Assembly: GCF_000014785.1 (NCBI RefSeq)
Contig: NC_008340.1
Location: forward strand, 2,820,001 to 2,852,000
Source: Alkalilimnicola ehrlichii MLHE-1
GTDB lineage: Bacteria > Pseudomonadota > Gammaproteobacteria > Nitrococcales > Halorhodospiraceae
Length of the DNA stretch: 32,000 nt
Direction: 5' to 3'
In this document: in pieces, positions 6,293 to 26,713 of the stretch
How the letters are laid out: each line of letters opens with the position of its first letter
How positions within the stretch are numbered: the stretch's first letter is position 1
The notes under the pieces: model-generated
The model's input: only the letters and a program-made list of their open reading frames with translations
Told to the model about the DNA's origin: nothing
The model's database searches: none
Made by a program: the position numbers and the translations under genes

Positions 6293-6301
6293 GCCCCTCT
6301 G

Positions 6302-6345: not shown

Positions 6346-6418
6346 CGCCTGGTCAGGTAATTTTACCGAACCGTCACTCAGAGAAGGGCGCGTCCTGGTC
6401 GGCGGCGCCCTGCCCCCC

Positions 6419-7165: not shown

Positions 7166-7253
7166 GACGATACCCCTCTTCCAATCAAAAATGGCGACGG
7201 AGCAGATGCCGCTCACGCCCGAAAGCGGTGTGACCAGCAAGGCCGAAGGCCCC

Positions 7254-7270
7254 GTGTTGCGGTGCACAAT
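7254..7270. promoter_or_regulatory. Second copy of the TGCAC-N-GCAACA motif (putative PhaR operator) in the phaB leader
   Basis: Minus-strand ATTGTGCACCGCAACAC versus ATGTTGCACAGCAACAT at 6302-6318: 13/17 identical, and the core TGCACnGCAACA is identical at all 11 fixed positions. It starts 15 nt downstream of the phaB -10. Confidence 0.45.
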
Positions 7271-7285
7271 CGCTGATTGGAGCTG

Positions 7286-7314
7286 ATAGTAGGGTCAGTT
7301 CACCCCGGTGTCAA
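7286..7314 (-). promoter_or_regulatory. sigma70-type promoter of phaB
   Basis: On the minus strand: TTGACA (7314..7309), 17-nt spacer, TACTAT (7291..7286), about 120 nt upstream of the phaB ATG. Confidence 0.55.
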
Positions 7315-7354
7315 CGGGTGACGCGTCGTTCAGGTCGGTTTTGTGATCTGTGCC

Positions 7355-7888
7355 TCAGCGCTTGGTGCGGGTGCCGCCCTTGCCCTTTCCGGTGGACTTC
7401 CCGCCGCGTTCCCCGTCGGCGCCCGAGCCCTGCTCATCATCCTCGGCACCCTGGGGCTCGAGGCCGCTCATGGCCTGCCACATGGAGAGGTTACGCTCGG
7501 CGAATTGGGTGAGGACGTTGATGGGGCTGTGGTCCATGAAGGTGCGGGTCCGCTCCTGCAGCATCCGTTGCTGGTCGAACCAGAGCTCCAGGCTTTTCTC
7601 CAGGTAGGTGGTCAACACGTTCTGCATGTTGCCGCCGTAGGCCCGGATCAGCTGGGCGAGCAATTCACTGCTGAAGATGGGCTCACCACCCTCCTCCTCC
7701 TCGGCGATGATCTGCAGCAGGATACTACGGGTAATATCCTGCCGCGTTTTCGCATCAATCACCTGGAAATCCACCGCATCCAACACCAACCCCTTGACGT
7801 CCGCCAGGGTGATGTAGCTGCTGATGGCGGTATCGTAGAGGCGGCGGTTGGGATACTTTTTGATGACGCGGATTTCACTCATGACCAT
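7355..7888 (-). CDS. phaR: Polyhydroxyalkanoate synthesis repressor PhaR
   Basis: The N-terminus M(VM)SEIRVIKKYPNRRLYDTAISSYITLADV is the hallmark PhaR motif. Start is the ATG at 7888 or at 7882; GGAG lies 4 and 10 nt upstream respectively. Basic Gly/Lys tail. The 255-aa ORF start at 8122 is rejected. Confidence 0.9.
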   Translation of the reverse strand: MVMSEIRVIKKYPNRRLYDTAISSYITLADVKGLVLDAVDFQVIDAKTRQDITRSILLQIIAEEEEGGEPIFSSELLAQLIRAYGGNMQNVLTTYLEKSLELWFDQQRMLQERTRTFMDHSPINVLTQFAERNLSMWQAMSGLEPQGAEDDEQGSGADGERGGKSTGKGKGGTRTKR

Positions 7889-7967
7889 TACGCTCCGGGC
7901 AGGACGCTTCAGGTGTGTACTGGGGTATAATGGTGACCGGGCAGGGCCGGGGTGACACCCCCTGGCT

Positions 7968-8008
7968 TGCGGCGCCGCACCATTCGCTAAAACCACAGTA
8001 TGGTGCGG
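7968..8008. promoter_or_regulatory. Dyad symmetries around the phaR promoter and leader
   Basis: CCGCACCAT (7975-7983) pairs with ATGGTGCGG (8000-8008), bracketing the -10 and +1. A perfect 12-bp palindrome TGCGGCGCCGCA lies at 7968-7979. Confidence 0.35.
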
Positions 8009-8023
8009 GGCCAAGCCTGTCAA
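7995..8023 (-). promoter_or_regulatory. sigma70-type promoter of phaR
   Basis: On the minus strand: TTGACA (8023..8018), 17-nt spacer, TACTGT (8000..7995). Confidence 0.55.
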
Positions 8024-8081
8024 GCCAGTGCGCCAAAGTGCAGCATTGACCCCCATTCGTAAGCGGCAACGCGAGGTCGGC

Positions 8082-8909
8082 ATGAGCACCTCCGCCCTGG
8101 AAAGCCTACAGGACCACGACACCCTGCCGCCGCTACCCTACGTAGCCCACGAGATCCTGCTGGCCGCCAACCGGGAAGAGCCCGACATCGCCGAGGTCTC
8201 GGACAAGCTGGCCCGCGAGCCGGGGCTGTCCGCGCGGGTGGTGGCCATGGCCAACTCGGCCTTCTTCGCCGGTCAACAACCGCTCTACTCCATCCAGCAT
8301 GCCATCATGCGCCTGGGGCTGGTCCGGGTCCGGGTGCTGGCCGCCTCGGTGCTGCTGAATAAGCTCTTCGACCCGGGCCGCTGCCCGGCCTTCAGCGCGC
8401 CGCGCTACTGGCATGACGCCATCGCCACCAGCTACACGGCCACCCGGCTGGCCCCCCACCTGGCCCCTTCGGACACCGCCGACGCCGCCTACATCTCCGG
8501 CCTGCTCCACAATATCGGCCTGTTGCTGCTGGTGCATTTCTTCCCCGGCCCGATGAACGAGGTGCTCGGCGAGTACGGGAGGCGCCCGGAACAATCCCTG
8601 GTGGCGCTGACCCGGTCGGCGCTGGGCTGCGACCACGGCGAGGCGGGCCGGCTACTGCTCAAGGCCTGGGAGCTGCCGGAACCGGTGGTGGCCGTGGCCT
8701 CGCATTTCCACTCGCCCCATTATCGTGGCGAACACGCCGAGCTGGTGCACCTGGTCCGACATGCCGCGGAATGGCACGAGGCGGGCTTCGAACTGCCGGA
8801 GGCGCACCCCCTCAACCGGGCGTTGCCCGCCGCGGTACGGGCTACGGAGGCGCGCCACTGCCAGCGTGAGACCGAGCGGTTGGCCGCCTTCGCCAGGCTG
8901 CTCGCCTGA
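8082..8909 (+). CDS. HDOD domain-containing signalling protein
   Basis: LPPLPYVAHEILLAANREEPDIAEVSDKLAREPGLSARVVAMANSAFF...IQHAIMRLGL is a typical HDOD N-terminal region. ATG at 8082 has GAGG 5 nt upstream. Confidence 0.8.
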   Translation: MSTSALESLQDHDTLPPLPYVAHEILLAANREEPDIAEVSDKLAREPGLSARVVAMANSAFFAGQQPLYSIQHAIMRLGLVRVRVLAASVLLNKLFDPGRCPAFSAPRYWHDAIATSYTATRLAPHLAPSDTADAAYISGLLHNIGLLLLVHFFPGPMNEVLGEYGRRPEQSLVALTRSALGCDHGEAGRLLLKAWELPEPVVAVASHFHSPHYRGEHAELVHLVRHAAEWHEAGFELPEAHPLNRALPAAVRATEARHCQRETERLAAFARLLA

Positions 8910-8952: not shown

Positions 8953-10305
8953 CTACCGCCGGCCATCATCCGCCAGCAGCAGAAAGGGCCGGGCCTTGTC
9001 GACCGTTTCACACAGTTCTGCCTGCTCCTCGGAGTCGGCCACCACGCCACCACCGGCCCAGTAGCGGATCTCGCCATCGCGGCACACGGCGGTCCGGATG
9101 GCGATGTTGGTGTCCATGTCGCCATTCCAACCGATGTAACCGATCGCCCCACAGTAGACACCGCGGGGCCCGGGCTCCAGCTCGTCGATAATCTCCATGG
9201 CGCGCCGTTTCGGGGCCCCGGTGATGGAGCCGCCCGGTAGGCAGGCGCGCAACAGGTCGGTGGCGGTGCGTCCCGGCGCCAGCCGGCCGCTGACGTGGCT
9301 GACCAGGTGGTGCACCGCCGGGTAACTCTCCAGCCGGCAGAGGACCGGTACCCGCACCGAGCCGGTCTCGCACACCTGGCCGATGTCATTGCGCAGCAGA
9401 TCGACGATCATGACGTTCTCCGCCCGATCCTTCGGGCTCTGCTGCAGGGCCTCGGCCAGGCGGCGATCCTGCTGCGGGTCCCCGCCACGGGGGCGCGTCC
9501 CCTTGATGGGGCGGGTATCCACCTCGCCCCCCTGCAGGCGTAGAAACCGCTCTGGTGACAGACACAGGACCTGCTCGTCGGGGAAGCACTGCCAGGCCCC
9601 GAACGGCCCCTGCGCCCGGCGACGCATGCGCAACCAGGCCCCCAGCGGATCGCCCCGGTAGGCGGCGTGAAACCGGCGGGCGAGATTGACTTGGTAGCAA
9701 TCACCGGCGTGCAGATAATCGCGCACCCGGTGAAAGGCCCGCCCGTAGTGTTCGGCATCCGGCGCCCGCCGCAACGGCCCGCGCAGGGCAAAGGCCGGGG
9801 CGGCGCCGTCCCGGGCGGCGAACACCTGGTGCCGCAACCAGAGCAGGGAGGCCTCGTCGATTTCGCCCAGCACAGCGGTCAACCGCTGGTGGTGGTCGGT
9901 CACCAGTGCCCAGTCGTACAGCCCCACCCGCATCTCCGGACCGGCCCCGGACCGCACCGGCAGGCCGTGCAGCCGCCGGCCCAGGTCGTAACTGAAGTAG
10001 CCCACCGCCCCGCCCGAGAAGGGCCAGTGCGCGCTGGGGCTGCCACCACCGGCCTCACCCAGGCAGCGCTGCAACACCGCCAGCGGATCCTCGTCGGTTT
10101 GTTGCACCGGGCCCCGACCGGCCACCCGGGTCCGGCCACCGGCCGATTCCAGGGTGATCCGCGGGCGCATCACCAGGATGTCGAACCGTCCGGCGCCACT
10201 GCCCGGCCAGCCGCTGTCCAGCCACTGACACCAGGGCTGGCGCCCGATCCGCCGTAGCAGCCGGGTGCCATCCGCCAGATATGGCATGGGGTAATACGCG
10301 GGCAT
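8953..10305 (-). CDS. pabB: Aminodeoxychorismate synthase component I (chorismate-binding enzyme, PabB-like)
   Basis: C-terminal GGSITGAPKRRAMEIIDELEPGPRGVYCGAIGYIGWNGDMDTNIAIRT is the chorismate-utilising signature. Size of about 450 aa and lack of the TrpE regulatory N-terminal motif favour PabB over TrpE. Confidence 0.7.
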   Translation of the reverse strand: MPAYYPMPYLADGTRLLRRIGRQPWCQWLDSGWPGSGAGRFDILVMRPRITLESAGGRTRVAGRGPVQQTDEDPLAVLQRCLGEAGGGSPSAHWPFSGGAVGYFSYDLGRRLHGLPVRSGAGPEMRVGLYDWALVTDHHQRLTAVLGEIDEASLLWLRHQVFAARDGAAPAFALRGPLRRAPDAEHYGRAFHRVRDYLHAGDCYQVNLARRFHAAYRGDPLGAWLRMRRRAQGPFGAWQCFPDEQVLCLSPERFLRLQGGEVDTRPIKGTRPRGGDPQQDRRLAEALQQSPKDRAENVMIVDLLRNDIGQVCETGSVRVPVLCRLESYPAVHHLVSHVSGRLAPGRTATDLLRACLPGGSITGAPKRRAMEIIDELEPGPRGVYCGAIGYIGWNGDMDTNIAIRTAVCRDGEIRYWAGGGVVADSEEQAELCETVDKARPFLLLADDGRR

Positions 10306-10409
10306 CTGTGAATCCTGCTATGCTCAGAATCAACTATGGGCCCGAGTTGATCGGGCGGTTTGCTGCACTTTGGCAGGCCGTTTACCGCACCCCGACGAGA
10401 AGACCAGTC

Positions 10410-12155
10410 ATGGCGACCAGTCAGCACTCAGCGCAGGCGTTCTACGACGGTCTCCCCTGGCAACACCACTATGGCGAGGGGGTGTCCACCGAGTTCCAAC
10501 CCCTGCCCGAGAGCAGCCTGGCGGAGATGCTGCGCCAGGCCGCCCATCACCATCCCGAACGGACCGCCTTCACCACCTGTCTGGACAACGGTCTGAACGC
10601 CAGCCTCGACTACGCCACCACGGACCGGCTCTCGGACCATTTCATGGCCTGGCTGCTGCGGGAGGCGGGGCTGGGCCCCGGCGAGCCGGTGGCCATCCAG
10701 ATGCCCAACTGCCTAGCCTATCCGGTCACCGCCTTCGGCGCCCTCAAGGCCGGCACCCCTCTGGTCAATATGAACCCGTTGTACACGGCGCCGGAGATGC
10801 ACCATCAGCTCGCCGACAGTGGCGCGCGGGTGCTGGTCATTGTGGACCTGTTCGCCGATAAACTGGAGCAGGCGCTCAACGATACCGCGGTGGAGCACGT
10901 GGTGCTGACCTCGGTGGCCGATTTCTTCCCGAAACCGCTACGCTGGCTGATCCAGGGGGTGCTGCGCTGGCGCGGTGAGCGGCCGCCGCCGCCCGCCGGG
11001 GTACACCACCTCGGCCGCACCCTGGAAGAGGGCGCGGCGCATCTGGGCCAGTTTACCCCACCGAGCCCGGCGGCGGATGACCTGGCCCTGCTGCAGTACA
11101 CCGGCGGCACCACCGGCCGGGCCAAGGGCGCGATGCTGCGCCACCGCCACCTTCTGGCCAATGTCGCCCAGATTGAGGCGGTGGCCGGGCCGGCACTGCG
11201 CGGGCACCAGGACACCGTGCTCACCGCCCTGCCCCTTTACCACATTTTCGCCTTCACCTTTAACCTGCTGGTCTTTCACCGGCAGGGGTCGCACAACGTG
11301 CTCTGCCCGTCGCCGCGCCCGGTGGACCGCCTGCGCAAGGCCTTCGCCCGCTACCCGGTCACCAAGTTCTCCGGCGTTAATCTGCTGTTGCACGGCCTCT
11401 GTCAGGCCGAGTGGTTCCGCAGCCAACCGCCACCGCAACTGGACCTAACGGTGGCCGGTGGCACCGCCCTCAACCCCCGCGTGGCGGAACGCTGGTCGGA
11501 GGTCACCCGCAGTCGGGTGCTGGAGGGCTACGGGCTGACCGAGACCGCACCGGTGGTGGCGGTGAACCCGCCCCAGGGCGAGGCGCGGTTGGGCACCGTG
11601 GGCCTGCCGGTGCCAGGCACTGAGGTGCGTATCGTCGACGACAACGACCGGCCGGTTCCGGCCGGGGAACGGGGCGAGGTGGTGGTCCGCGGCCCACAGG
11701 TCTTCGACGGGTACTGGAAGCAACCGCAGGAGTCCGAACACGCCCTGCGGGGCGGCTGGTTCCACACCGGCGATGTGGGCGTGATGGATGAACAGGGCTA
11801 CCTGCGCATCGTCGACCGCAAAAAGGACATGATTGACGTCGGCGGCTTCAACGTCTTCCCGCAGGAGGTGGAAGAGGCGCTGCTGGAACACCCTGCCATC
11901 ATCATGGCGGCGGTGGTGGGGGTCCCCGCCGGGGGCGACGCCGGTGACGAACAGGTGGTGGCCTACGTGGTCTGCGATGAGCGCGAGTCGGCCCCGGACG
12001 AGGACGCCCTGCGCCAGTTCCTGAACCGGCACCTGACCCGCTACAAGATCCCCCGCCGTATCCTGTTCCGCGACAGCCTGCCGGTCACCACGGTGGGCAA
12101 GGTCCTGCGCCGGGAGTTGCGCGAACAGGCCCGCGAGGAGGTGGGCCCGGCTTGA
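10410..12155 (+). CDS. fadD: Long-chain-fatty-acid--CoA ligase (AMP-forming acyl-CoA synthetase)
   Basis: AMP-binding motif LQYTGGTTGRAKGAMLRHRHL, plus GYGLTETAP and WFHTGDVGVMDEQGYLRIVDRKKD. I chose the ATG at 10410 (MATSQHSAQAFYDGLPW); the ORF start at 10281 would overlap pabB. Confidence 0.85.
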   Translation: MATSQHSAQAFYDGLPWQHHYGEGVSTEFQPLPESSLAEMLRQAAHHHPERTAFTTCLDNGLNASLDYATTDRLSDHFMAWLLREAGLGPGEPVAIQMPNCLAYPVTAFGALKAGTPLVNMNPLYTAPEMHHQLADSGARVLVIVDLFADKLEQALNDTAVEHVVLTSVADFFPKPLRWLIQGVLRWRGERPPPPAGVHHLGRTLEEGAAHLGQFTPPSPAADDLALLQYTGGTTGRAKGAMLRHRHLLANVAQIEAVAGPALRGHQDTVLTALPLYHIFAFTFNLLVFHRQGSHNVLCPSPRPVDRLRKAFARYPVTKFSGVNLLLHGLCQAEWFRSQPPPQLDLTVAGGTALNPRVAERWSEVTRSRVLEGYGLTETAPVVAVNPPQGEARLGTVGLPVPGTEVRIVDDNDRPVPAGERGEVVVRGPQVFDGYWKQPQESEHALRGGWFHTGDVGVMDEQGYLRIVDRKKDMIDVGGFNVFPQEVEEALLEHPAIIMAAVVGVPAGGDAGDEQVVAYVVCDERESAPDEDALRQFLNRHLTRYKIPRRILFRDSLPVTTVGKVLRRELREQAREEVGPA

Positions 12156-12237
12156 TCCCGGGGGGTACACTGGCCCCACTGCCGCCCCCGGCAGGACCGG
12201 CCTGCGCCACCCCCGATCCGGCCAAGGAGTGCCCCGT

Positions 12238-13278
12238 ATGACAGAAGCCCCACTGTCCCACCCGTTGGCCCTAGCGCTTCAGGGCGGCGGCGCCCACGGC
12301 GCCTTCACCTGGGGTGTGCTCGACCACCTGCTCGCGGCCGGACTCAGGCCCGCGGGCCTGAGTGGCACCAGCGCCGGCGCCCTCAACGCCGCGGCCCTGG
12401 CCTCCGGCTGGGCGCGCGCCGGCCAGGAGGGTGCGCGCGCCACCCTCACCACGCTCTGGGAGGGGGTCAGCGCCCTGGGTGGACCGCTGCAGCCGTCGCC
12501 GGCCAGTTACCTGGTGCACGGCTGGAACCAGGACTGGTCGGTGCGCTACCAGGCCTTCAAGGCGACCACCCAGGTGGCCTCGCCCTATCAGTTCAACCCG
12601 GCCGGCTTTAATCCGCTCCGCGAGCTGCTGCAGGACTGCCTGGACTGGTCTGCGCTGACGGGGCCCGACGCCCCGCCGCTGTTTGTCAGCGCCACCGAAG
12701 TGGAGACCGGCCGCCTGCGCATCTTCGACAACCACTCCCTGGACGTCACCGCCCTGCTCGCCTCCACCTGCCTGCCCACCCTGTTCCAGGCGGTGGAGCG
12801 CAACGGACGCCACTACTGGGACGGCGGCTTCGCCGCCAACCCGGCGCTGCACCCGCTGCTCACCCACGCCAGCGCCGATGATCTGCTGCTGTTGCAGCTC
12901 ATGCCCCAGCGGACGGCCGACGGGCCGCCGCGCGAGCCGGGAGAGATCCTGCGCCGGTCCCGGGAGCTGAGCTTCAGCACCCACCTCTACCGGGAGTTGC
13001 AGTGGCTGGCGCTGCAGCAGGCCGATTGCGGCCCCGGGTCGCGCTGGTCGCTCTCGCCCCTGCGCCGGCGGATCGCCCGGCTGCGCTTCCACCACCTGAC
13101 CGGCGACCGTGACTTGGCCGGGTTGGGCACGGCCAGCCAGTTGAACGCCGACTGGCCCTTCCTATGCCACCTGCGCGATGCCGGCCGCAAGGCGGCCGAT
13201 GACTGGCTCGCCACTCATGGCGGGCAGGTGGGCCGGACCAGTAGCCGCCCACTGAGCGATTTTCTGCCCACCGACTAG
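12238..13278 (+). CDS. Patatin-like phospholipase family protein
   Basis: Oxyanion GGGAHGAF, nucleophile elbow GTSAGA (GxSxG) and catalytic Asp in [12 protein letters not shown] lies 8 nt upstream of the ATG at 12238. Confidence 0.85.
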
Positions 13279-17843: not shown

Positions 17844-17916
17844 CGGTCCTCCATGAGTGCGGCCAGCGGCGGGATTGGGCTGGGCCGCCGGCGCCCCCTA
17901 TCCTATACTGCCGGCC

Positions 17917-18528
17917 ATGCATGTGCCGCCGGAACAGGACCTGGAACCGCTGCTGCCGCAGATCCTCACCGTGTTGCGGGCAAACCCGGACGGGCTTAGC
18001 GAATTCGAGCTGGTCCGCGCCCTGGACGAGGCGGCCGTGGGCCCCTTCCGGCGCGAGGCCCTGCGCGATACGGCCGAACTCTTCCGCAGCCACTTCCTGC
18101 TCTTCCACTGCCTCTACCGCCTGCGCCAGCGACTGCGCGAGCGGGGCGAGGACCTGCTCATCCACTGCACCCGCATTGCGCTGGCCCCGGGGCCGTCGCC
18201 GGCGGCGTCCACCAACGCGCCCGCCACCCCGTTGAGCGTCGCCGACCCGCTGGCGGCCTACTACTTGGACCTGAAGCACCTGGCCGCCGCCGACCTGGCC
18301 AGCGTGGAGGCCATGCTCGCCGACGGCTGGCGCCGGATCCGCCGGGGCGGCCATCGCGAGCAGGCATTGGCTGAACTGGAACTCCGTGAACCGGTGAGCG
18401 ACAAGCAGATCCGGCGCCAGTACCGGCGCCTGGTCATGCGCCACCATCCTGACCGCGGTGGCGACACGACCCGCATGCAGCAGGTGGTCAGGGCCATGGA
18501 GACCCTGGGCCTGGCCCGCAATCGCTGA
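17917..18528 (+). CDS. DnaJ-related protein (C-terminal J domain)
   Basis: C-terminal IRRQYRRLVMRHHPDRGGDTTRMQQVVRAMETL carries the HPD motif. ATG at 17917 (MHVPPEQDLEPLLPQIL...). No SD; TATACT ends 7 nt before the ATG. Confidence 0.75.
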   Translation: MHVPPEQDLEPLLPQILTVLRANPDGLSEFELVRALDEAAVGPFRREALRDTAELFRSHFLLFHCLYRLRQRLRERGEDLLIHCTRIALAPGPSPAASTNAPATPLSVADPLAAYYLDLKHLAAADLASVEAMLADGWRRIRRGGHREQALAELELREPVSDKQIRRQYRRLVMRHHPDRGGDTTRMQQVVRAMETLGLARNR

Positions 18529-18748
18529 CACCCCCCGGGCGGCCCCGACCGCCAACCCATGTATTCAATATTTATTATTTTACCGGTGGGCACTATGTAC
18601 CACCGCCCCCTCCCTGCGTCCCGATAGCCTTTCAACCGTGCGCCGTTGCCCCCCACACCAGGGCGAGAGCGCATCAAAGGATGGAGGAGCACCGGGCCGC
18701 TGACACGCCCCGCGATGCTCCGCTACAGCGGTACAAGGGGAGTCCATA

Positions 18749-20062
18749 ATGAAACGTCTTACCGCAACCACTGTTCGCGGCCTGATCACCGGCGCGGGTC
18801 TTGGGGGCCTGCTGATCCCGGGGCTGGCCCTCGCCACCAACGGCTACCAGCTCACCGGCCTGGGCAGCCACGAAAAGTCGCTCGGCGGGGCGGTCACCGC
18901 CGCACCGCGCAGCGCGATGACGGCCATCAGCAACCCGGCCGGTATCGGCCGCATCGGGTCCCGCGTCGACTTCTCCATGGAGGTCTTCAGCCCCGAGCGG
19001 AGCACCGACTTCCGGGCCCTCGGGGGCGAGAAGGTCACCAGCGACACCGACACCTATATCATTCCGAGCCTGGGCTGGGCGGCCCCCATCACCGAAGACC
19101 GCCGCCTGTGGTTCGGCGGGGGCTTCTTCGGCACCTCCGGGCTCGGTGTCGATTACGCGGTGACAGACGTCATGCCCAACGGGCAGCTCATGAACGGCCA
19201 CACCCAGTGGGACGGCTACAGCTCGATCTTCTTCGCCCAGATGACGCCGGTGCTTTCACTGCGGGTGAACGACCGCCTCACCGTTGGCGCCGGCCCGGTG
19301 CTCGCGCGCCAGCAGGTGGCCCTGAAACAGCGCTTCCACGACATGCCGGTCGGGCCGGGCATGGTGATGGACACCAACTTTGACCTCAGCAAGGCCAGCA
19401 GCGCCCTTGGTGCTGGTGTCAGCCTGGGCCTGATCTACGACCTTGGCACCCGGTGGCGGCTGGGCGCCACCTACCAGAGCAAGATCCACTTCGAAGACCT
19501 GCGCTACAACCTGGCCGCCGGCGACATTCATGGCCAGGACAGCAACGGCGAGTTCGTCGACGGCGAGGCGGGCACCTGGCGGCTGGGCCTCGACTACCCG
19601 CAACAGGCCAGCGTGGGCCTGGCCTGGGCGGCAAACAACACCCTCACCCTCTCCGCCGACGTGAAGTGGCTCAACTGGTCCGACACCATGGATGAGTTGA
19701 CCGTAAAGGGCCCCAATGGCAGCCGCTTCGCCCTGGACCCCGGCTGGGACGACCAGTGGGTCTTCGCCGCCGGCGCGGAGTGGGTGGTGAACCCCGAGCG
19801 GCTCACCCTTCGCGCCGGCGTCAACTACGCCGAATCCCCCCTCGATGACGAGGACGTGGCCACCAACCTCCTGCTACCGGCGGTGGTGGAACGCCATGTC
19901 GCCCTCGGCGGCACAGTGCGGATGGTCAACGGCTGGGACCTGGGCTTCCACCTCAAGCACGCCCTGAAGAACAAGCAGACCCAGGACGGCGGCCCCTTTG
20001 ACGGCGTCTCGGTGGAGATGGACCAGTGGTCCGCCGGACTCAATATCGGCTACGCCTTTTGA
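18749..20062 (+). CDS. Outer-membrane transport protein of the OMPP1/FadL/TodX family
   Basis: Signal peptide ending ALA-TNGYQL. Family-typical N-terminal GYQL..G....S.GGA.TA......A..NPAGIG. Alternating beta-strand pattern with C-terminal ...GLNIGYAF (terminal Phe). RBS AAGGGGA. Confidence 0.85.
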   Translation: MKRLTATTVRGLITGAGLGGLLIPGLALATNGYQLTGLGSHEKSLGGAVTAAPRSAMTAISNPAGIGRIGSRVDFSMEVFSPERSTDFRALGGEKVTSDTDTYIIPSLGWAAPITEDRRLWFGGGFFGTSGLGVDYAVTDVMPNGQLMNGHTQWDGYSSIFFAQMTPVLSLRVNDRLTVGAGPVLARQQVALKQRFHDMPVGPGMVMDTNFDLSKASSALGAGVSLGLIYDLGTRWRLGATYQSKIHFEDLRYNLAAGDIHGQDSNGEFVDGEAGTWRLGLDYPQQASVGLAWAANNTLTLSADVKWLNWSDTMDELTVKGPNGSRFALDPGWDDQWVFAAGAEWVVNPERLTLRAGVNYAESPLDDEDVATNLLLPAVVERHVALGGTVRMVNGWDLGFHLKHALKNKQTQDGGPFDGVSVEMDQWSAGLNIGYAF

Positions 20063-20102
20063 CCCCTAGCGACAGCAGCCAAGCCAGACAGGAGAGAGCA
20101 CC

Positions 20103-20648
20103 ATGAGCACGACCCGCGAGCAAACCACGGTGGTGGAACACCCCACGCAGGAACAGCCGGAACCGCAGCCCAAGCGCATGTCCATCATTGTCACCAAGGG
20201 CACACTGGACTGGGCCTATCCCCCCTTCATCCTGGCCACCACCGCGGCGGCCATGGACGTCAAGGTCGACCTGTTCTTCACCTTCTACGGCCTGCAACTG
20301 CTCAAGAAGGACCTCAGCCACCTGCGCATCTCTACCCTGGGCAATCCGGCCATGGAGATGCCGATGATGGGCATGCACATGGCCATGCCCAATCTGGTCT
20401 CGGCACTGCCCGGGGTGGACCGAATGGCCTCGGGGATGATGCGCCGGCTGATCAAAAAGAAGGGCGTCGCCTCGGTGGAGGACCTGCGCCAGACTGCCCT
20501 GGACTGCGATGTCGGCATGGTCGGCTGCCAGATGACCCTGGACCTGTTCGAGTTCCGGCGCGAGGACCTGATCGACGGGGTGGAACTGGCCGGCGCCGCC
20601 ACCTACATGGAGACGGCGCTGAACTCCGACATCAATCTCTACGTCTGA
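20103..20648 (+). CDS. DsrE2/DsrE3-like sulfur-relay protein (DsrE/DsrF-like family, COG2210 type)
   Basis: MSIIVTKGTLDWAYPPFILATTAAAMDVKVDLFFTFYGLQLL plus the conserved active-site context VGMVGCQMTLDLF...DLIDGVELAGAATYME. AGGAGAGAG RBS. It starts 40 nt after the FadL stop. Confidence 0.8.
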   Translation: MSTTREQTTVVEHPTQEQPEPQPKRMSIIVTKGTLDWAYPPFILATTAAAMDVKVDLFFTFYGLQLLKKDLSHLRISTLGNPAMEMPMMGMHMAMPNLVSALPGVDRMASGMMRRLIKKKGVASVEDLRQTALDCDVGMVGCQMTLDLFEFRREDLIDGVELAGAATYMETALNSDINLYV

Positions 20649-20722
20649 GCGCTATTCCCTTTGGGATAGTGTGACCGCCCATGGGCCGCCGTATACTCGA
20701 AATCGATCCCTGTTGCAGCAAG

Positions 20723-20748
20723 GGGTGCCGCCGCCGCAGGCGGCACCC
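20723..20748 (+). promoter_or_regulatory. 10-bp GC-rich stem-loop in the dsrE2-to-RHH/tusA spacer
   Basis: GGGTGCCGCC-GCCGCA-GGCGGCACCC, 27 nt upstream of the 20775 ATG, with no U-tract. An imperfect dyad CTATTCCC-TTT-GGGATAG lies at 20652-20669, and TATACT at 20692-20697. Confidence 0.35.
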
Positions 20749-20774
20749 GCATCATCGATGGAGAGGGCGTCTGC

Positions 20775-21416
20775 ATGGCCGTGGTCAGCGATCGACTGAT
20801 GGAGGAACCCCGGGCCCGGGCGGGCGAGGCCGACAGCGGCCTGCGCCGTGGCCCCAGCCCGCTGGAGCGCCTGTTCAGCCTGTGTGCCCCGGAGGACCGC
20901 AAGGGGTACGAACCCGGACGACGCTCACTGCGCATCGACGGCCACTGCACCACCATCCGCCTGGAGCAGGCCTTCTGGTCCGTATTGGAGGAGATCTCCG
21001 CCGAGGAGGGCATGACCATCCCGGAGATCATCGCCCAGGTGCAATACCACTGTCAGAGCGTCAACGACAAGAATATGGCCAGCTGCCTGCGGGTGCTTTG
21101 CCTCAAGTACATCAACACCTGCGCCTGGGCCACACCGGGCGAGGGCACTCCCGGGACGCCAGCCCTGCCCCAGCCCGGCCCGCGCATGGAGTTGGACACC
21201 CGGGGCCTGAGCTGTCCGCAACCGATCCTGCGCACCAAGAAGGCCCTGCGCGGCCTGGAGCCGGGCGAGGAACTCCGGGTGATCACCAGCGACCGCGGCT
21301 CGGCCATGGACTTTGACGTGTTCTGCCAGGCCATGGGCCACCGTCTGGTCTGGGAGCGGGAGACCGAAGAGGCCTACGTCTTCCTGCTGCAGAAGGGCAC
21401 CGGCGGCGCGGTCTGA
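20775..21416 (+). CDS. Fusion protein: N-terminal ribbon-helix-helix (RHH_4/COG4321-like) domain, Pro/Gly linker, C-terminal TusA/SirA sulfurtransferase domain
   Basis: Single uninterrupted frame. RRSLRIDGHCTTIRLEQAFWSVLEEISAEEGMTIPEIIAQV...NMASCLRVLCLKYI resembles RHH_4. The linker is ATPGEGTPGTPALPQPGPR. MELDTRGLSCPQPILRTKKALRGLEPGEELRVITSDRGSAMDF is a canonical TusA with a CPxP cysteine. GGAGAGGG lies 8 nt upstream of the ATG at 20775. Confidence 0.75.
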   Translation: MAVVSDRLMEEPRARAGEADSGLRRGPSPLERLFSLCAPEDRKGYEPGRRSLRIDGHCTTIRLEQAFWSVLEEISAEEGMTIPEIIAQVQYHCQSVNDKNMASCLRVLCLKYINTCAWATPGEGTPGTPALPQPGPRMELDTRGLSCPQPILRTKKALRGLEPGEELRVITSDRGSAMDFDVFCQAMGHRLVWERETEEAYVFLLQKGTGGAV

Positions 21417-21442
21417 GGGCCGCCGGTGCGCCAGGGGCGGGG

Positions 21443-22669
21443 TCAGAAGCTGTACTTCGCCGAGACCTGCACGCGGTTCAGCTCGCCGCTGTCCTCACCA
21501 TAGGCGTCCTCGCCCTCGATCTCCCGCTCGGCCCAGATGTACTCCACGCCCACGTCCACGTTCTGCACCGGTGTATAGATCAGGTTGAGGTGCACCGACT
21601 GGATCTGCTCGTTGGCCGTCTCCGGGGCGCTGCTGGGGTTGTCGGCCTTGGCCAGGCTGTAGACCAGGCTGCTGCGCAGGGTCTGATTCCACCAGTGCCG
21701 ATAGGACACATACCCACCCCAGATGCTCAAGGAGTCCAGATTGCCCTGGTCGTCGATAAAGGCATCGGGAAAGGCGTTCAGGCCGAGGTAACGGCCGAGT
21801 CCGTCGCCGTAGTTGAGCTGAAAGCGGACATCATTGCGCCCTCCGGCCTTCACCACGCCGGTCAGGCTGAGTGCGCCCACCCACTCGTCGTCGTCCACGT
21901 CGGCGCCGAGTTCCCGCGAGGTGCTGCGATCGACCCGGAGATTCCGGGCGACGCCAGCCAGGGAGCCGTGGCCCCAATCCCCCGAGACGTTGTAGCGGGC
22001 GACGAACTCCGGCCAGCGGTCATCCCGGGCGTTGCGGATGGCATCGCCCGGATCGGCCTCACCCAACGTCGCCTCGGAGGCCAGGGTGGTGAAGGGCTGT
22101 TCCACCGCCAGCATCAGGCTGTTGCCCTGCTCCAACGGCAGGGTGTAGCGCACCTGGATATTGCGATTGAACACCGTGCCGGCGGGCCCGACGAAATCCA
22201 GGGTCTCCGGTTTGGTGGTAACGTTGTAGAAAGTGCCCCAGGTCTGCCCGGCCAGCCAGTTGCCCAGCTGACCGAAGGCGTGCCGTAGCCGCGGGGGCTG
22301 GTTGCCCACCAGGCGGTTGCGGTCGATGGCGGCATCCTCGAGAAAGTCCACTTCGAGAAACGTGGTCAGATCCCCCAGGCCGGTGGGCGTCTGCGTGCGC
22401 AGGTTGACCCGACTCTCACGCACGCTGTAGCGGGTGACATTCCGTGAGTCCTCCTGCCCGTCCAGCGGGATCAGGGCGGGGATCATGAAGGCCTCGCTGC
22501 GGTCGTTGGCGGCACGGTTGGTCACATCACTGAAGTGGGCATCCATCTTCACGTAGCCGCCGAAATCGACGGTGGTCTCCGCCCACGCCGGTGAGATGAT
22601 CAGCCCCAGCAGTGCGGCGGTGGCCACCCCCAGGCAAACCGGTTTTTTGGTATGGCATGTGCTGCGCAT
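21443..22669 (-). CDS. Outer-membrane porin (DcaP-like beta-barrel)
   Basis: From the ATG at 22669 (AGGAGA 8 nt upstream): signal peptide ...IISPAWA-ETTVDFGGYVKMDAHF. LRHAFGQLGNWLAGQTWGTFYNV..PETLDFVGPAG is typical of this porin family. The C-terminus is SAKYSF. Confidence 0.65.
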   Translation of the reverse strand: MRSTCHTKKPVCLGVATAALLGLIISPAWAETTVDFGGYVKMDAHFSDVTNRAANDRSEAFMIPALIPLDGQEDSRNVTRYSVRESRVNLRTQTPTGLGDLTTFLEVDFLEDAAIDRNRLVGNQPPRLRHAFGQLGNWLAGQTWGTFYNVTTKPETLDFVGPAGTVFNRNIQVRYTLPLEQGNSLMLAVEQPFTTLASEATLGEADPGDAIRNARDDRWPEFVARYNVSGDWGHGSLAGVARNLRVDRSTSRELGADVDDDEWVGALSLTGVVKAGGRNDVRFQLNYGDGLGRYLGLNAFPDAFIDDQGNLDSLSIWGGYVSYRHWWNQTLRSSLVYSLAKADNPSSAPETANEQIQSVHLNLIYTPVQNVDVGVEYIWAEREIEGEDAYGEDSGELNRVQVSAKYSF

Positions 22670-22899
22670 GGTCGTTATCTCCTGACGGTGTGCAGTGTTC
22701 GCGATGACAAAGCGACGGTGCCCGAAGGCCCCCAGACACCGTCCCGTAGGAGTGTCGCCGGCCCCAGCCGACCCACCATGCGCATTAATACTTACTCGGT
22801 TTTTACTTAGTTTCCGGTTGCCTACGCAATTCCCCGGATGCGCCCGGGGCACCTGTTCTGCTGGACTGGCGGGAGATCCGGTTCAGGAGACCCGATGCC

Positions 22900-23949
22900 A
22901 TGCCCAGCAACAGCAGACGACAGTGGGGCAGCGCCAGGATCGCGGCGCTGGCTGTGGCCCTTGCGGTGACGGGGCAGGCCCACGCCCGCCTGCCGGTGGT
23001 CGACCCGCCGCTGATGCCCGAGGCGCCGGCGGATTACCGCGCCGCCAGCCTCTCCGGGGGGCCCGGGAAGGACGGCATCCCGGCCATCGACAACCCCGCG
23101 TTCCAGGCCGCCTCGGAGGCCGACGCCCGGCTCGACGACGGCGACCGGGTGGTGGGCCTCTACCATGACGGCGAAGCCCGGGCCTATCCCCAATCCATCC
23201 TGGTCTGGCACGAAATCGTCAACGACACCGTGGCCGGCGAGAACATCGCCGTCACCTACTGCCCCCTCACCGGTACCGCCCTGGGTTACCTGCGCGGCGA
23301 GACCACGCTGGGCGTCTCCGGCCGCCTGGTGAACAGCAACCTGATCATGTTCGACCGGGCCAGCGACAGCCTCTGGCCCCAGATACTGAGTGCCGGCATC
23401 GGCGGCCCCCACGAGGGCCAGGGGTTGGAGGAAGTGCGCGTGGTCTGGACCACCTGGGGCCGTTGGCGCGAGCGCCACCCGGACACCCGGGTGCTGACCA
23501 CGGACACCGGCTACCTGCGCAATTACAACCGCGACCCCTACGGCGGGTATAACCCGGTCCGGGGCTATTACGCCCCCAACGCATCGCCCATCTTCCCGGT
23601 CCGCCCGAGCAGCGACCGCTACCCGCCGAAAGAGGAGGTCTTCGGCATCCGCACCGCCAGTGCCGCGGTGGCGCTGGATCGGGACCACCTCGCGGCGGCG
23701 GGCGTGGTGAACATTCCGCTGGGTGATGACCACCTGGTGGTGGTCCACGACCCCGGCCTGGATACCGGTTGGGCCTTTCGTGCCGACGAGGCGGTGGCGC
23801 TGGACCCGACAGCGCTGCGGTTCGGGCCCGAGGGCCCGGTACACCCGGAGTTGGCGGACCTGGAGCGAGTGAACGGCTTCGAGGCCATGTGGTTCGCCTG
23901 GTACGCCTTCTATCCGGATACGGTGGTGGTCGATGGCGCTGGCCGCTGA
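22900..23949 (+). CDS. Secreted DUF3179 domain-containing protein
   Basis: Signal peptide MPSNSRRQWGSARIAALAVALAVTGQAHA. GKDGIPAIDNPAF...RVVGLYHDGEARAYPQSILVWHEIVND...IAVTYCPLTGT...MFDRASDSLWPQ matches my recollection of DUF3179 (PF11376) conserved blocks. Confidence 0.8.
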   Translation: MPSNSRRQWGSARIAALAVALAVTGQAHARLPVVDPPLMPEAPADYRAASLSGGPGKDGIPAIDNPAFQAASEADARLDDGDRVVGLYHDGEARAYPQSILVWHEIVNDTVAGENIAVTYCPLTGTALGYLRGETTLGVSGRLVNSNLIMFDRASDSLWPQILSAGIGGPHEGQGLEEVRVVWTTWGRWRERHPDTRVLTTDTGYLRNYNRDPYGGYNPVRGYYAPNASPIFPVRPSSDRYPPKEEVFGIRTASAAVALDRDHLAAAGVVNIPLGDDHLVVVHDPGLDTGWAFRADEAVALDPTALRFGPEGPVHPELADLERVNGFEAMWFAWYAFYPDTVVVDGAGR

Positions 23950-24472
23950 TCCGGTGCCCCGCCGCGCCGCCCTGGCCGCGGGGCTGGGCTACGCGGCGCT
24001 TTATCTCTGGCTGACCGGTGATCTCGACCTCACGGGCGACACGGCCTGGCGCTGGCAGTTGGGGCGCCTGGAATGGGCACATGTAATCCAGGCACGCGCG
24101 CCGTTTCTCTACGAAGCCGTTGCCCTCGTCCAGGCGGGCCGCCTGATGTGGCTCATCAGCCCGCTGAACCTGCTGATCACCGCCCTGCTTGCGGGCCTGC
24201 TGGCCGCCAATGTGCACGGCATGCTGACCCTGCGCCGTGGCGCGGCCACCCATTGCCGCAGCGGGCGGGGGGGCGCGGCCAGCGGCGCCCTGCCGGCATT
24301 GCTGGCCGGCTCCGCCTGTTGCGCCCCCGGCATCCTGCTGCTGTTGGGCATTCCGGCCCTGGGGGCCTTTGTCGGGTTGTTCGCCTGGCTGATCCCCCTC
24401 TCCCTGCTGCTGCTGGCCCTGAGCCGCGGCTGGCAGCGGTGGTGGGGCGCGCCCCCGCTCCTCGGGCGCTAG
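23933..24472 (+). CDS. Hypothetical 4-TM inner-membrane protein with intramembrane vicinal cysteines (MerT-like SACC motif)
   Basis: Four hydrophobic segments. LLAGSACCAPGILLLLGIPALG places Cys129-Cys130 (nt 24317-24322) inside TM3. The ATG overlaps the DUF3179 gene end by 17 nt. The stop shares CTAG with the convergent kinase gene. Confidence 0.6.
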   Translation: MALAADPVPRRAALAAGLGYAALYLWLTGDLDLTGDTAWRWQLGRLEWAHVIQARAPFLYEAVALVQAGRLMWLISPLNLLITALLAGLLAANVHGMLTLRRGAATHCRSGRGGAASGALPALLAGSACCAPGILLLLGIPALGAFVGLFAWLIPLSLLLLALSRGWQRWWGAPPLLGR

Positions 24473-25800
24473 TACCGCAGGGTGACGTCGAAACGCGCTC
24501 CGCCGAGGGTTTCGGAGCGGTCCACGGTCACCTGGCCACCCCGGACGGCGGCCAGGTCGCTCACCACCGCCAGGCCTATCCCCTGCCCCGGGTGGCGTTC
24601 ATCGGCCCGGCCACCGCGGGCCAGGATCCGCTCCACCTGTGCCGCCGGGACACCGGGGCCGTCGTCCTCCACCTGCAGCCACAGGCCCTCGCCGTTGCGC
24701 TGGCCCGCGCTCACCACCACCTGCGAGCGGGCATGGCGCACGGCGTTGTCCAGCAGGTTGCCGGCCAGCTCCATCAGCTCCGCCTCGCCACCAGCGAAGC
24801 GCACATCCGGCGGGCAGTCCAGCCGCAACCGCACGCCAGGGTCCAGCTTCCGCAGCGCCGCCAGCAGCCGTTCCAGCACCGGCCGCACCGGCAACCGGTC
24901 ACCCAGCGGGGCCGGTCCGTGGCCGGCCCGGCGCAGGTGGTAGTCGATGGCCTGGTCCATCCGCCGGAGCTGGGCGGTGGCCGTATCGGCCCCGTCGGCG
25001 GGCAACTGGCTGCGCAGCACCGCCAGCGGGGTCTTGAGACTGTGGGCCAGGTCCCCCAGGGCCTGCTGGTGGCGCTCCATCCGTTGTTGCTGGGCGGCCA
25101 GGAGCTGGTTGAGTCGGCGGGTCAGGGCGCTGAGCTCCGGCGGGTGGTCCTCACCCAGCCGGCGGACGCGGCCGGCCTCCACCGCCTGCAGCTCACGGCC
25201 GATACGGCGCAACGGCTGCAGTGTCCAGCGCAGCAACAGCAACTGGGTGAGCAGCAATCCCCCGGCGGCCACCGCCAGCCAGCCCCAGAGCGCCTGGCGG
25301 AAGCGGGCCAGTTCACCGGCGAAAACGGCCTGCTCCTCCAACACCTGCAGGGTGAAGCGACCGCGTTCGCCATCCGCCTCCTCCCAGGCGATCCCGTAGG
25401 CCAGGCCGTGCAGCGGCGCCCCGTCGGCGGGGGCCACGCCACCCTCCTGGGTCTCGCCGGGCGCCAGCCGGGGCGGCGCGGGCAGGGTCCGGTCCAACAG
25501 TGAGGGCGAGCGCCAGCGGATGGTGCCACCGTCGTCGATCACCTGGGCATAGAGCCCGGAGCCGGCGCTGCGCAGCCGCGCATCGGGCAGTTCCCCGGCC
25601 AGGACCAGGGCCTGATCGCGCAGCTCAGCGGCGGCCAGCAGCCCGAAGATCTGCCCCTGGAGGCGCTGGCTGCGGGCCTCCTCGGCACCCTCGCGGAAGG
25701 CGTGGTCGACCACCAGTCCGGTGGTGCCCAACAGCAGAAGCAGGGAGGCGCCGGCCACCCAGAGCACCCGGTGCAGCAGCGGGAGGCGCCGCAGACGCAT
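24469..25800 (-). CDS. Sensor histidine kinase (PhoQ/QseC/BqsS-like: TM, periplasmic domain, TM, HAMP, HisKA, HATPase)
   Basis: H-box LGDLAHSLKTPLAVL, N-box NLLDNAVRHA and G-boxes EDDGPGV / GQGIGLAVV. Two TM segments flank a periplasmic domain of about 145 aa. The start ATG at 25800 overlaps the regulator stop (ATGA). Confidence 0.9.
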   Translation of the reverse strand: MRLRRLPLLHRVLWVAGASLLLLLGTTGLVVDHAFREGAEEARSQRLQGQIFGLLAAAELRDQALVLAGELPDARLRSAGSGLYAQVIDDGGTIRWRSPSLLDRTLPAPPRLAPGETQEGGVAPADGAPLHGLAYGIAWEEADGERGRFTLQVLEEQAVFAGELARFRQALWGWLAVAAGGLLLTQLLLLRWTLQPLRRIGRELQAVEAGRVRRLGEDHPPELSALTRRLNQLLAAQQQRMERHQQALGDLAHSLKTPLAVLRSQLPADGADTATAQLRRMDQAIDYHLRRAGHGPAPLGDRLPVRPVLERLLAALRKLDPGVRLRLDCPPDVRFAGGEAELMELAGNLLDNAVRHARSQVVVSAGQRNGEGLWLQVEDDGPGVPAAQVERILARGGRADERHPGQGIGLAVVSDLAAVRGGQVTVDRSETLGGARFDVTLRY

Positions 25801-26480
25801 CACCCCGCCCTCGCCAGCCTTAACCGGTAACCCCGGCCGCGCAGGGTCTCGATGGGTTGGAGGGTGCCGTCGGGGTCCAGCTTGCGGCGCAGGCGGCGGA
25901 TGAAGACCTCCATCACGTTGCTGTCGTGCTCGGCCGCGTCGGGGTAGAGGTGTTCCTCCAGCCGGGTCTTGGACAGCACCGCGCCCTGGTGCAGCATCAT
26001 GTAGTGCAGCAACCGGAACTCGCTGCCGGTCAGCTCGATCCGGGCACCGTCGCGCCAGGCGGTCTGGCTGCGGGTGTCCAGCGCCAGCGGCGGGCACCGC
26101 AGCACCGGGTCGGCCCAGCCCCCCGCACGGCGCAGCAGCGCCTGGACCCGGGCCAGCAGCTCCGGCATCTCGAAGGGTTTGACCAGGTAGTCGTCGGCCC
26201 CGGCCTCCAGGCCGGTCACCCGATCCTGCCAGTGCCCCCGGGCGGTGAGGACGAGCACCGGCAGGGTGCGTCCGTCCGCGCGCAGCGCGCGGATGAGTTC
26301 CAGGCCGGAGAACCGCGGCAGGCCCAGATCGATGATCGCCAGATCCAGCGGGTAGTCGCGGGCCATGTGCAGCCCCTCGCGACCGTCTGCCGCCTGGTCC
26401 ACCACGTAGCCCGCGCGGCCGAGCGCGTCGGCCAGTTGCCGGCGCAGGGCGGGTTCGTCCTCGACCACCAGCAGCCGCAT
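25800..26480 (-). CDS. OmpR/PhoB-family response regulator
   Basis: MRLLVVEDEPALRRQL...DLAIIDLGLP (receiver Asp) with a winged-helix C-terminus ...IETLRGRGYRL. The ATG at 26480 overlaps the upstream PepSY stop (TGATG). Confidence 0.9.
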   Translation of the reverse strand: MRLLVVEDEPALRRQLADALGRAGYVVDQAADGREGLHMARDYPLDLAIIDLGLPRFSGLELIRALRADGRTLPVLVLTARGHWQDRVTGLEAGADDYLVKPFEMPELLARVQALLRRAGGWADPVLRCPPLALDTRSQTAWRDGARIELTGSEFRLLHYMMLHQGAVLSKTRLEEHLYPDAAEHDSNVMEVFIRRLRRKLDPDGTLQPIETLRGRGYRLRLARAG

Positions 26481-26713
26481 CAACGGACCTCGCCGGTGCG
26501 GGCATCGACCCGGAAGACACGCACTTGGCCCGGGGCGACCAGCACCCGGACCCGGTAATGATTGCCGCGGCGCTCGACCCCCAGGACCCGGCCGTCGGTG
26601 TGCTCGCGCACCCGGGCCACGGCCTCGCGTTCACTCAAGCCGGCCGGCGCCGGGGTCGCGAGCAGCAGCAACGGCGTGGCGCAAAGCAGGCGCAGGCAGG
26701 TTCTACGGTTCAT
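26480..26713 (-). CDS. Small secreted PepSY-like domain protein
   Basis: MNRRTCLRLLCATPLLLLATPAPA signal peptide, then LSEREAVARVREHTDGRVLGVERRGNHYRVRVLVAPGQVRVFRVDARTGEV, which is the PepSY pattern. Translationally coupled to the regulator. Confidence 0.65.
   Translation of the reverse strand: MNRRTCLRLLCATPLLLLATPAPAGLSEREAVARVREHTDGRVLGVERRGNHYRVRVLVAPGQVRVFRVDARTGEVR

Follow-up and report, generated by a model that had tools for sequence, protein, structure and literature searches.

Cytoplasmic sulfur relays in which DsrE2 stands beside a CPxP-type TusA carrier are found in the rhd-tusA-dsrE2 genes of Allochromatium vinosum and in shdr-associated sets, and the function of DsrE2 has been described as unclear (PMC11094781). 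Both proteins are also encoded in the stretch of Alkalilimnicola ehrlichii MLHE-1 DNA analyzed here (32,000 nucleotides (nt), contig NC_008340.1, positions 2,820,001 to 2,852,000 of the forward strand; hereafter the window, from whose first letter positions are counted). In the window dsrE2 follows a gene for a FadL-type outer-membrane channel, and precedes a gene in which TusA is fused to a ribbon-helix-helix domain, RHH_4. Relative to the A. vinosum relay, the order is dsrE2 then tusA, the RHH_4 domain is interposed between DsrE2 and TusA and fused to the latter, and a rhodanese gene is missing, as the initial annotation had it. Among the main open reading frames of the window, scanned against Pfam, neither rhodanese nor dsr or shdr genes were found, be it next to the relay or farther away, and no further sulfur genes are present. 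A. ehrlichii is a soda-lake oxidiser of sulfur and arsenic.

The pairing of a transporter gene with a TusA-type carrier is known from the YeeE/YeeD (TsuA/TsuB) system of thiosulfate uptake (PDB 8k1r, 8j4c), and in a sister lineage of the module described below a YeeE-type gene holds the slot occupied by fadL in the window. The window transporter is however an outer-membrane barrel, not an inner-membrane YeeE, and cannot physically contact cytoplasmic TusA. CstR, SqrR/BigR, the ArsR-type SoxR and sHdrR are akin to the fusion protein in the proposed cysteine-based sensing of sulfane sulfur at sulfur genes. The fold of the fusion is, by its Pfam family, ribbon-helix-helix, not CsoR or ArsR, and, unlike the known persulfide repressors, the candidate sensor is fused to a TusA carrier, or encoded beside it. 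The likeness to these sensors is one of function, and hypothetical. A single precedent was found in the literature for a FadL/TodX protein associated with elemental sulfur or polysulfide, CT2230 of Chlorobaculum tepidum, a FadL-family gene in a sulfide-repressed regulon for which a sulfur-moving role was put forward as a hypothesis (preprint, bioRxiv 10.1101/172254). The CT2230 case rests on transcription start sites and on a motif that it shares with sox and dsr promoters; the window case, in a different organism, on the genes being linked to DsrE2/TusA.

Sulfur microbiology has long asked by what route elemental sulfur, being insoluble, passes the outer membrane, be it in uptake or in the deposition of extracellular globules. 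The locus provides a genetically tractable candidate, a FadL-clade channel placed behind the predicted control region of a sulfur-carrier module. We read it, tentatively and with belief falling slightly short of doubt, as a lineage-specific elaboration of a conserved sulfur-trafficking module, FadL importing hydrophobic sulfur under RHH_4 control. The module itself, dsrE2-RHH_4-tusA, is a widespread, undescribed three-gene unit, and the finding of candidate regulator and module would stand even if the channel were an ordinary lipid or hydrocarbon port.

The module, its flanks and its proteins

Identities, coordinates and order of the three same-strand genes agree with those initially annotated. 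The features of the locus are:

18559-18631, plus strand: P1, promoter-like element conserved across module loci
18749-20062, plus strand: fadL-type gene, outer-membrane channel of the FadL/TodX family, 437 amino acids (aa) (Pfam PF03349)
20063-20102, plus strand: fadL-dsrE2 gap of 40 nt with Shine-Dalgarno sequence AGGAGAGAG (from folding and motif reading)
20103-20648, plus strand: dsrE2 sulfur-carrier gene, 181 aa (NCBIfam NF047629, Pfam DrsE_2)
20652-20697, plus strand: P2, palindrome plus -10-like box, conserved 5' of RHH genes
20723-20748, plus strand: GC-rich hairpin in the presumed 5' untranslated region of RHH-tusA (from folding)
20775-21416, plus strand: RHH_4-TusA fusion gene, 213 aa (Pfam RHH_4, TusA)

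In genomic loci encoding the fusion protein and its relatives, dsrE2, RHH_4 and tusA are the constant unit in seven contexts, and the flanking genes vary. In A. ehrlichii the adjacent RHH_4 and tusA genes are fused. The arrangements are (the seven contexts first, then L100):

Window and L087 (83% identity, fully syntenic): FadL upstream
L084-86: periplasmic monohaem cytochrome c, YeeE-type Sulf_transp, triple rhodanese, DsrE2, RHH-TusA, DsrE
L081 and L092 types: multihaem cytochrome c and cytochrome b upstream
L094: DAO upstream, SQR-like flavoprotein (Pyr_redox_2) downstream
L090 (Halorhodospira sp.): dsrE2 divergent from unfused RHH_4, then tusA
L099 (Varunaivibrio sulfuroxidans, an alphaproteobacterium): DsrE2, unfused RHH_4 (99 aa) and TusA, with Sulf_transp on the divergent side, beside soxYZA
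L095 (metagenomic contig): DsrE2 (73% identical to that of the window), 16 nt, standalone RHH_4, end of contig
L100 (Aliiroseovarius): DsrE2-TusA without RHH_4, a divergent ArsR-type gene instead, beside SoeABC-like genes

An ArsR-type gene also adjoins the RHH_4 gene in L098. More generally, the neighbours of distant four-cysteine members of the RHH_4 family are DrsE_2, a pair of small Sulf_transp genes, or a gene of the ArsR type.

In two of the contexts a conserved minus-strand gene string lies downstream of the module (L081, 8712-14080; L090, 1625-6975; L092, 8620-14028). The string, an atypical chaperone set, encodes Hsp70-like, GrpE and DnaJ-like (97 aa) proteins, preceded by a protein of 130-147 aa and followed by one of 707-744 aa without Pfam match.

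DsrE2 scores 225 bits on the NCBIfam equivalog NF047629 (cut-off 210) and 168 bits on Pfam DrsE_2 (PF13686). The protein lacks a signal peptide, and features an active-site-type cysteine in the sequence GCQMT, which every DsrE2 homologue obtained from the fetched loci also has. Homologues number more than 7900, many of them 70-83% identical. The start at M26 once used by RefSeq (156-aa DsrE2) was discarded. It lacks a Shine-Dalgarno sequence, and the MSTT start is kept in Halorhodospira; the 40-nt gap to fadL stands for these reasons.

In the fusion protein RHH_4 spans aa 49-112 (about 20919-21110; PF13467, 82.2 bits, cut-off 25) and TusA aa 138-207 (about 21186-21395; PF01206, 78.6 bits). The TusA half, the only confident part of the model, superimposes on Escherichia coli TusA (3lvj_C) with a TM score of 0.91 and a root-mean-square deviation of 1.3 Å. 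The CPxP cysteine is C146, the residues LSCPQP aligning with LRCPEP in the E. coli protein. The RHH_4 part matches PDB 3kk4 (BP1543, uncharacterised) with E = 6e-15. Residues C37, C58, C93, C104, C109, H57 and H92 are invariant in the fusion clade; C37, C93, C104, C109 and H57 are found also in the RHH_4 proteins nearest to that of the window, and C93 and C104 are missing in BP1543. In Pfam the fusion matches RHH_4, TusA and, below threshold, DUF2249 only; no HTH_5, HTH_20 or CsoR match was obtained. The four-cysteine RHH_4 subfamily looks like an undescribed regulator of sulfur-trafficking genes, and no paper in the library searched connects TusA and DsrE to a ribbon-helix-helix protein.

Fusions of RHH_4 to TusA are very rare. 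Among 5.8 billion proteins a word-based search yielded eight fusion clusters (62-100% identity), an exhaustive HMMER search of 1.84 billion representatives one 50%-identity cluster with both domains, and a metagenome scan for further fusions two loci only, both of the known L082 type.

The assignment of 18749-20062 to the FadL/TodX barrels is borne out by Pfam (112.2 bits on PF03349, Toluene_X; cut-off 29.7), by a PDB profile match to TodX over residues 26-408 (E = 2e-37) and by an AlphaFold (AF2) model (pLDDT 82.7, pTM 0.81). An identical (100%) A. ehrlichii MLHE-1 protein is named OmpP1/FadL; DsrE2 and RHH-TusA likewise have 100% identical counterparts in this strain. The model has the FadL-type beta-barrel with an N-terminal plug (hatch); pLDDT is below 50 at residues 1-44, that is the signal peptide and the first ~15 mature residues of the hatch, and higher in the hatch beyond residue 44. 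TodX, FadL, TbuX and CymD are the best Foldseek matches (TM 0.64-0.76, with 0.68-0.76 given for TodX/FadL; about 22% identity). With these channels the window protein has in common fold, signal peptide (ending in GLALA), the G-aromatic-Q-L sequence at the mature N-terminus (TNGYQL), the NPA motif of the hatch and a C-terminal aromatic residue (GYAF). The motif, N62-P63-A64, corresponds to mature residues 33-35, the position of the N33A, P34A and delta-NPA mutants of E. coli FadL (PDB titles), and G32, Y33, Q34, N62, P63 and A64 are invariant in 25 homologues. Identity is only about 22% to TodX and 17-18% to E. coli FadL, and the protein scores far below every NCBIfam equivalog cut-off (BamG 38.9/250, FadL 22.6/585, FilD 21.1/970, AupA 14.9/840). 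It is only distantly related to the characterised channels, and orthologous to none of them. More than 470 proteins make up the separate clade of which it is a member, mainly found in sulfur-cycling Gammaproteobacteria, Desulfobulbales and Nitrospirota, and, unlike known FadL channels, the window gene is not linked to fadD or aromatic-degradation genes.

Upstream elements and probable transcription units

P1 is made up of a box, TGTATTCAATATTTAT (18560-18575), followed after 24 nt by CCACC (18600-18604) and after 20 more nt by the -10-like hexamer TAGCCT (18625-18630). The consensus is (T)GTAnnCAAyAwwTAT-N24-CCACC-N20/21-TAnnCT. The element sits about 120 nt 5' of the fadL ATG in the window, and upstream of fadL also in L087. 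In L081, L092, L094 and L090 it is directly 5' of dsrE2, and in L084 it heads the cytochrome c-yeeE-rhd-dsrE2 string. There is one copy per gammaproteobacterial module locus, and none elsewhere in the 1.14 Mb of fetched DNA scanned, 80 FadL loci included. An nhmmer model built without the window and L087 matches 18560-18630 with E = 5.3e-7. Outside P1, the strict 5' box was found only in L097, a distant RHH_4 locus, where it faces divergent Sulf_transp genes and shares 16 identical nt with the copy in L094. The box, TGTAnnCAATAwwTAT, is a candidate RHH_4 operator.

A second, weaker P1-like match (E about 4e-4) was noticed in L084, at 1404-1445 on the minus strand. It lies in the same intergenic region as P1, and points to a divergent Tll0287-like gene. 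In L099 (about 6700, minus strand) the spacer between DsrE2 and RHH_4 contains a GCAATAAAT-like box resembling the core of the P1 box; so short a match could arise by chance, and it was not counted as a P1 copy. The P1 and P2 models gave no matches in Varunaivibrio and Aliiroseovarius.

P2 consists of a palindrome, CTATTCCC-TTT-GGGATAG (20652-20669), and of a -10-like TATACT (20692-20697) 22 nt downstream. The consensus is TAT(C/T)NCC-N3/4-GG(G)RATA, located 20-22 nt 5' of a TAnnCT hexamer. The element is found 55-105 nt 5' of every RHH(-tusA) start, also in Halorhodospira, where the locus is divergent and the genes are unfused. Since it is present even there, P2 belongs with the RHH gene rather than with the dsrE2 end. 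The possibility that the palindrome is a dsrE2 terminator was rejected, as it accompanies the RHH gene even when dsrE2 points the other way (L090), and its distance from the -10-like box is fixed. There is one copy in the 32-kb window, and no second palindrome upstream of fadL. Downstream of P2, a GC-rich hairpin of 10 bp without U-tract, GGGTGCCGCC-gccgca-GGCGGCACCC (20723-20748), is found in the window and L087 only, within about 45 inserted nt that the other loci lack. We read P1 and P2 as predicted promoter/operator regions, from which transcription would be expected to start near 18637 (P1) and 20704 (P2).

Co-transcription of all three genes, proposed initially, may hold in part. The short distance between fadL and dsrE2 and the strong ribosome-binding site were correctly noted: the 40-nt gap is unstructured (minimum free energy -11.1 kcal/mol, z = +0.93) and devoid of terminator-like sites, and a GGAGAG Shine-Dalgarno sequence is kept, as is the dsrE2 ATG, in L087. 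Since fadL stands between P1 and dsrE2, fadL and dsrE2 are most likely one transcription unit. The location of P1 5' of fadL argues that the two genes are co-regulated, and co-regulation with the module is supported because fadL is in the slot that the sister lineage fills with YeeE and rhodanese. In contrast, the 126-nt spacer 5' of RHH-tusA holds the palindrome, the -10-like box and the GC hairpin, and RHH-tusA therefore probably has its own promoter and is probably a separate transcription unit. Its conserved upstream element leaves a plain three-gene operon unsupported. As for the statement that no terminator separates the genes, it is right for the first gap; the spacer is not empty, though its hairpin lacks a U-tract. 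A simple promoter/terminator scan of 18400-23000 gave nothing relevant on the plus strand. Rfam (E <= 1) gave no matches in 18400-24600, so the spacer elements belong to no known RNA family.

Linkage of the FadL clade and competing readings

Eighty genomic loci of the FadL clade (29-54% identity over the best aligned segment) were fetched from Thioalkalivibrio, Thiohalomonas, Thiohalophilus, Thiohalorhabdus, Thiogranum, Lysobacterales, Desulfobulbales, Nitrospirota and Syntrophales. A sulfur-trafficking gene lies within 8 kb of FadL in 12 of them. It is within 1 kb in 7 of these 12 (binomial p about 2e-4 against a uniform spread), and immediate adjacency, in 6 of 80, exceeds a rough expectation of about 1% based on assumed gene counts, statistics which overcount independent events, as the Nitrospirota cases are interrelated. 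In six Nitrospirota loci FadL is the immediate neighbour of DsrE-family or TusA genes, joined in two of them by rhodanese, in at least three arrangements. Loci with sulfur genes are:

L060 (Nitrospirota): DsrE-like (minus), FadL (plus), DrsE_2 and TusA (minus), secreted rhodanese (plus)
L059, L073 (Nitrospirota): sulfur genes divergent from FadL
L056, L062 (Nitrospirota): sulfur genes convergent with FadL
L058 (Nitrospirota): DsrE-like gene upstream of FadL
L064, 6885-9317: rhodanese-DUF302-FadL on one strand
L028 (gammaproteobacterial metagenome-assembled genome, MAG), 555-4195: FadL, then a convergent MBL-fold gene, possibly a persulfide dioxygenase, and a 422-aa Sulf_transp (YeeE) gene
Three Thiohalophilus loci: tusA-dsrE2 3-6 kb from FadL with unrelated genes between (in L031 dsrE2 only)
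L043: rhodanese 3 kb from FadL

The Thiohalophilus loci were down-weighted as support for linkage, transglutaminase-like, TetR-like and AhpC-like genes (so called from sequence reading) intervening. The neighbourhood comparison proposed with the initial annotation had a divided outcome: the linkage recurs, in the six Nitrospirota loci, L028 and L064, but 68 of the 80 loci have no sulfur-trafficking gene within 8 kb. Linkage of the clade to sulfur genes is suggestive rather than conclusive.

In about 10 loci in all, of the Thiohalomonadaceae type, an OmpR-type response regulator and a histidine kinase are encoded divergently and directly upstream of FadL, about 700-900 nt away (L020, L038, L043, L046, L047, L048, L051). 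A dedicated two-component system probably controls the channel in these loci. The kinase and regulator of the window were rejected as orthologues, the regulator showing a generic 36-40% identity and the kinase being unrelated. A second FadL-family paralogue, 26-27% identical, is found 1-2 kb downstream of the clade member in two MAGs and in Thioalkalivibrio sulfidiphilus, whose clade gene is 53% identical to that of the window (L002, 10046-11368; L022, 10914-12164; L040, 11146-12234).

In the reading preferred here, fadL and dsrE2 would be transcribed as one unit from P1, under the module's own control. The four-cysteine RHH_4 domain would be a DNA-binding regulator, with the P1 box as candidate operator, and its state would be set by sulfane sulfur delivered through DsrE2 and the fused TusA domain. 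The regulator would control 'cargo' genes that bring sulfur compounds into the cell. FadL, the cargo here, would allow hydrophobic zero-valent sulfur (S8 or organic polysulfanes) to diffuse laterally through the outer membrane. Both the substrate (S8, polysulfanes or thiols) and the direction of transport are inferred only. The channel is a testable but unproven candidate route for water-insoluble sulfur, and its candidacy is supported because the same clade is independently linked to sulfurtransferase genes in Nitrospirota. A wider claim would be that in bacteria which oxidise or disproportionate sulfur this clade is the conduit by which zero-valent, water-insoluble sulfur passes the outer membrane, and that the four-cysteine RHH_4 proteins are new sulfane-sulfur-sensing transcription factors which act through the TGTAnnCAATAwwTAT box on this conduit and on other sulfur importers; so broad a claim is unlikely to hold.

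Several observations weigh against import by a channel belonging to the module. FadL is no conserved partner of the module. It is found upstream in one of the seven module contexts, that is in A. ehrlichii and its 83%-identical relative L087, and is missing from the other six. For passage across the inner membrane, from FadL to the cytoplasmic relay, the window has no gene, and a search for expression data from A. ehrlichii found none. The juxtaposition may be fortuitous, FadL being a general channel for hydrophobic nutrients or membrane lipids placed there by a rearrangement in the A. ehrlichii lineage, and any co-transcription devoid of functional meaning. Besides the narrow distribution, this explanation has on its side the 68 clade loci without sulfur-trafficking genes and the fact that no neighbour of FadL is conserved in more than 13 of the 80, the commonest being a two-component system, hydantoinase B-like and asparagine-synthetase-like genes (the latter two judged from sequence, with no family scan). 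The nearest solved relatives of the channel are hydrocarbon and fatty-acid channels, and PHA, acyl-CoA-ligase-like and patatin genes lie 5-15 kb upstream of fadL. Yet P1 is located exactly 5' of fadL, not between fadL and dsrE2, and bona fide sulfur transport genes occupy the same slot in a parallel lineage. Independently, clade members of Nitrospirota adjoin genes for DsrE, DrsE_2, TusA and rhodanese, which are variously oriented, and one in a gammaproteobacterial MAG adjoins YeeE/MBL genes. The lipid genes of the window are moreover separated from fadL by the housekeeping genes yebC, ruvCA and priA. Chance placement seems to us somewhat unlikely. A channel working outwards or both ways, releasing zero-valent sulfur formed in the periplasm, its expression adjusted by a cytoplasmic module that senses the sulfur load, would fit co-regulation with a sulfur-sensing module equally well. 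Lateral diffusion through the barrel wall of FadL-family proteins is passive, so direction would follow the gradient. Ectothiorhodospiraceae and Thioalkalivibrio form extracellular sulfur, and members of the clade cluster in Thioalkalivibrio, Thiohalomonas, Thiohalophilus, Thiohalorhabdus and Ectothiorhodospiraceae MAGs. This list of taxa is however biased by relatedness to the query, Nitrospirota and Desulfobulbaceae members more plausibly consume S0, and in the described FadL mechanism the substrate exits the barrel into the outer membrane, the reverse path being undocumented; release of sulfur is, of all the readings, the most improbable.

The role assigned to RHH_4 in the preferred reading can be questioned on other grounds. 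DNA binding by Pfam RHH_4 is putative, and the sole solved relative, 3kk4, is uncharacterised. The RHH part is poor in the monomer model, the TusA half alone being confident, and its fold is predicted from the Pfam family. Hints for DNA binding, namely conserved upstream motifs and divergent gene layouts, are indirect, and P1 and P2 are defined at the consensus level. When the P1 model is built from the four direct dsrE2 contexts (L084 excluded), the window copy is still the best match outside the training set, but E is 0.049. Leave-out support for P2 is weak (E = 0.22 for the window, 0.01 for L087). P1 and P2 are unlike each other and without an obvious common operator, and a single regulator of both is inferred only. 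RHH_4 might then be a sulfur-carrying, metal- or Fe-S-binding adaptor in the DsrE2/TusA relay, another regulator binding P1 and P2. The four or five invariant cysteines, with one or two histidines, could be ligands of a metal or of a cluster, and in L095 and L099 the RHH_4 gene is inside the dsrE2-tusA string, like a pathway component. Pfam nevertheless places the domain in the ribbon-helix-helix family, and the layout in Halorhodospira and L097 is that of a divergent regulator and its target. An ArsR-type regulator holds the equivalent place in Aliiroseovarius, and a specific box co-occurs with RHH_4 genes across distant lineages. We consider an adaptor role decidedly unlikely, less so than an outward channel.

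Neighbouring genes

The other features annotated in the window are:

3963-8122: PHA cluster, encoding PhaE-like protein, alpha/beta hydrolase (PhaC-like), short-chain dehydrogenase and PhaR regulator
10281-13278: AMP-binding enzyme and patatin-like lipase
17857-18528, plus strand: DnaJ-related gene
21443-22669, minus strand: DcaP-like porin (Pfam DcaP, 110 bits)
22900-23949, plus strand: DUF3179 protein (338 bits)
23933-24472, plus strand: membrane protein, 179 aa, weak MerT-like CC motif (E = 0.009)
about 24469-26483, minus strand: histidine kinase and response regulator

The remaining window genes include, with the PHA, AMP-binding enzyme and patatin-like genes, yebC, ruvCA and priA, which stand between the lipid genes and fadL. 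The DcaP-like porin is adjacent to tusA, as initially noted, but lies on the minus strand, convergent with tusA across 26 nt, and is not a same-strand downstream gene. Two GC hairpins are found at 21400-21470. The porin likely starts at 22669, not at 22852, because a signal peptide (MRSTCH...) begins there, and because the L087 orthologue is 408 aa long. The gene is syntenic in L087, and absent from every other module context.

The pair formed by DUF3179 and CC-membrane-protein genes, also part of the initial annotation, was recovered at 22900-24472 on the plus strand, and is syntenic in L087. The two genes overlap by 17 nt. The DUF3179 protein is secreted, and the 179-aa membrane protein contains a GSACCAPG motif which weakly resembles the cysteine pair of MerT. 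From fadL to the porin (19001-23000) the G+C content is 0.65-0.67, against 0.72-0.75 in the flanks, which would fit later acquisition or rearrangement of this block.

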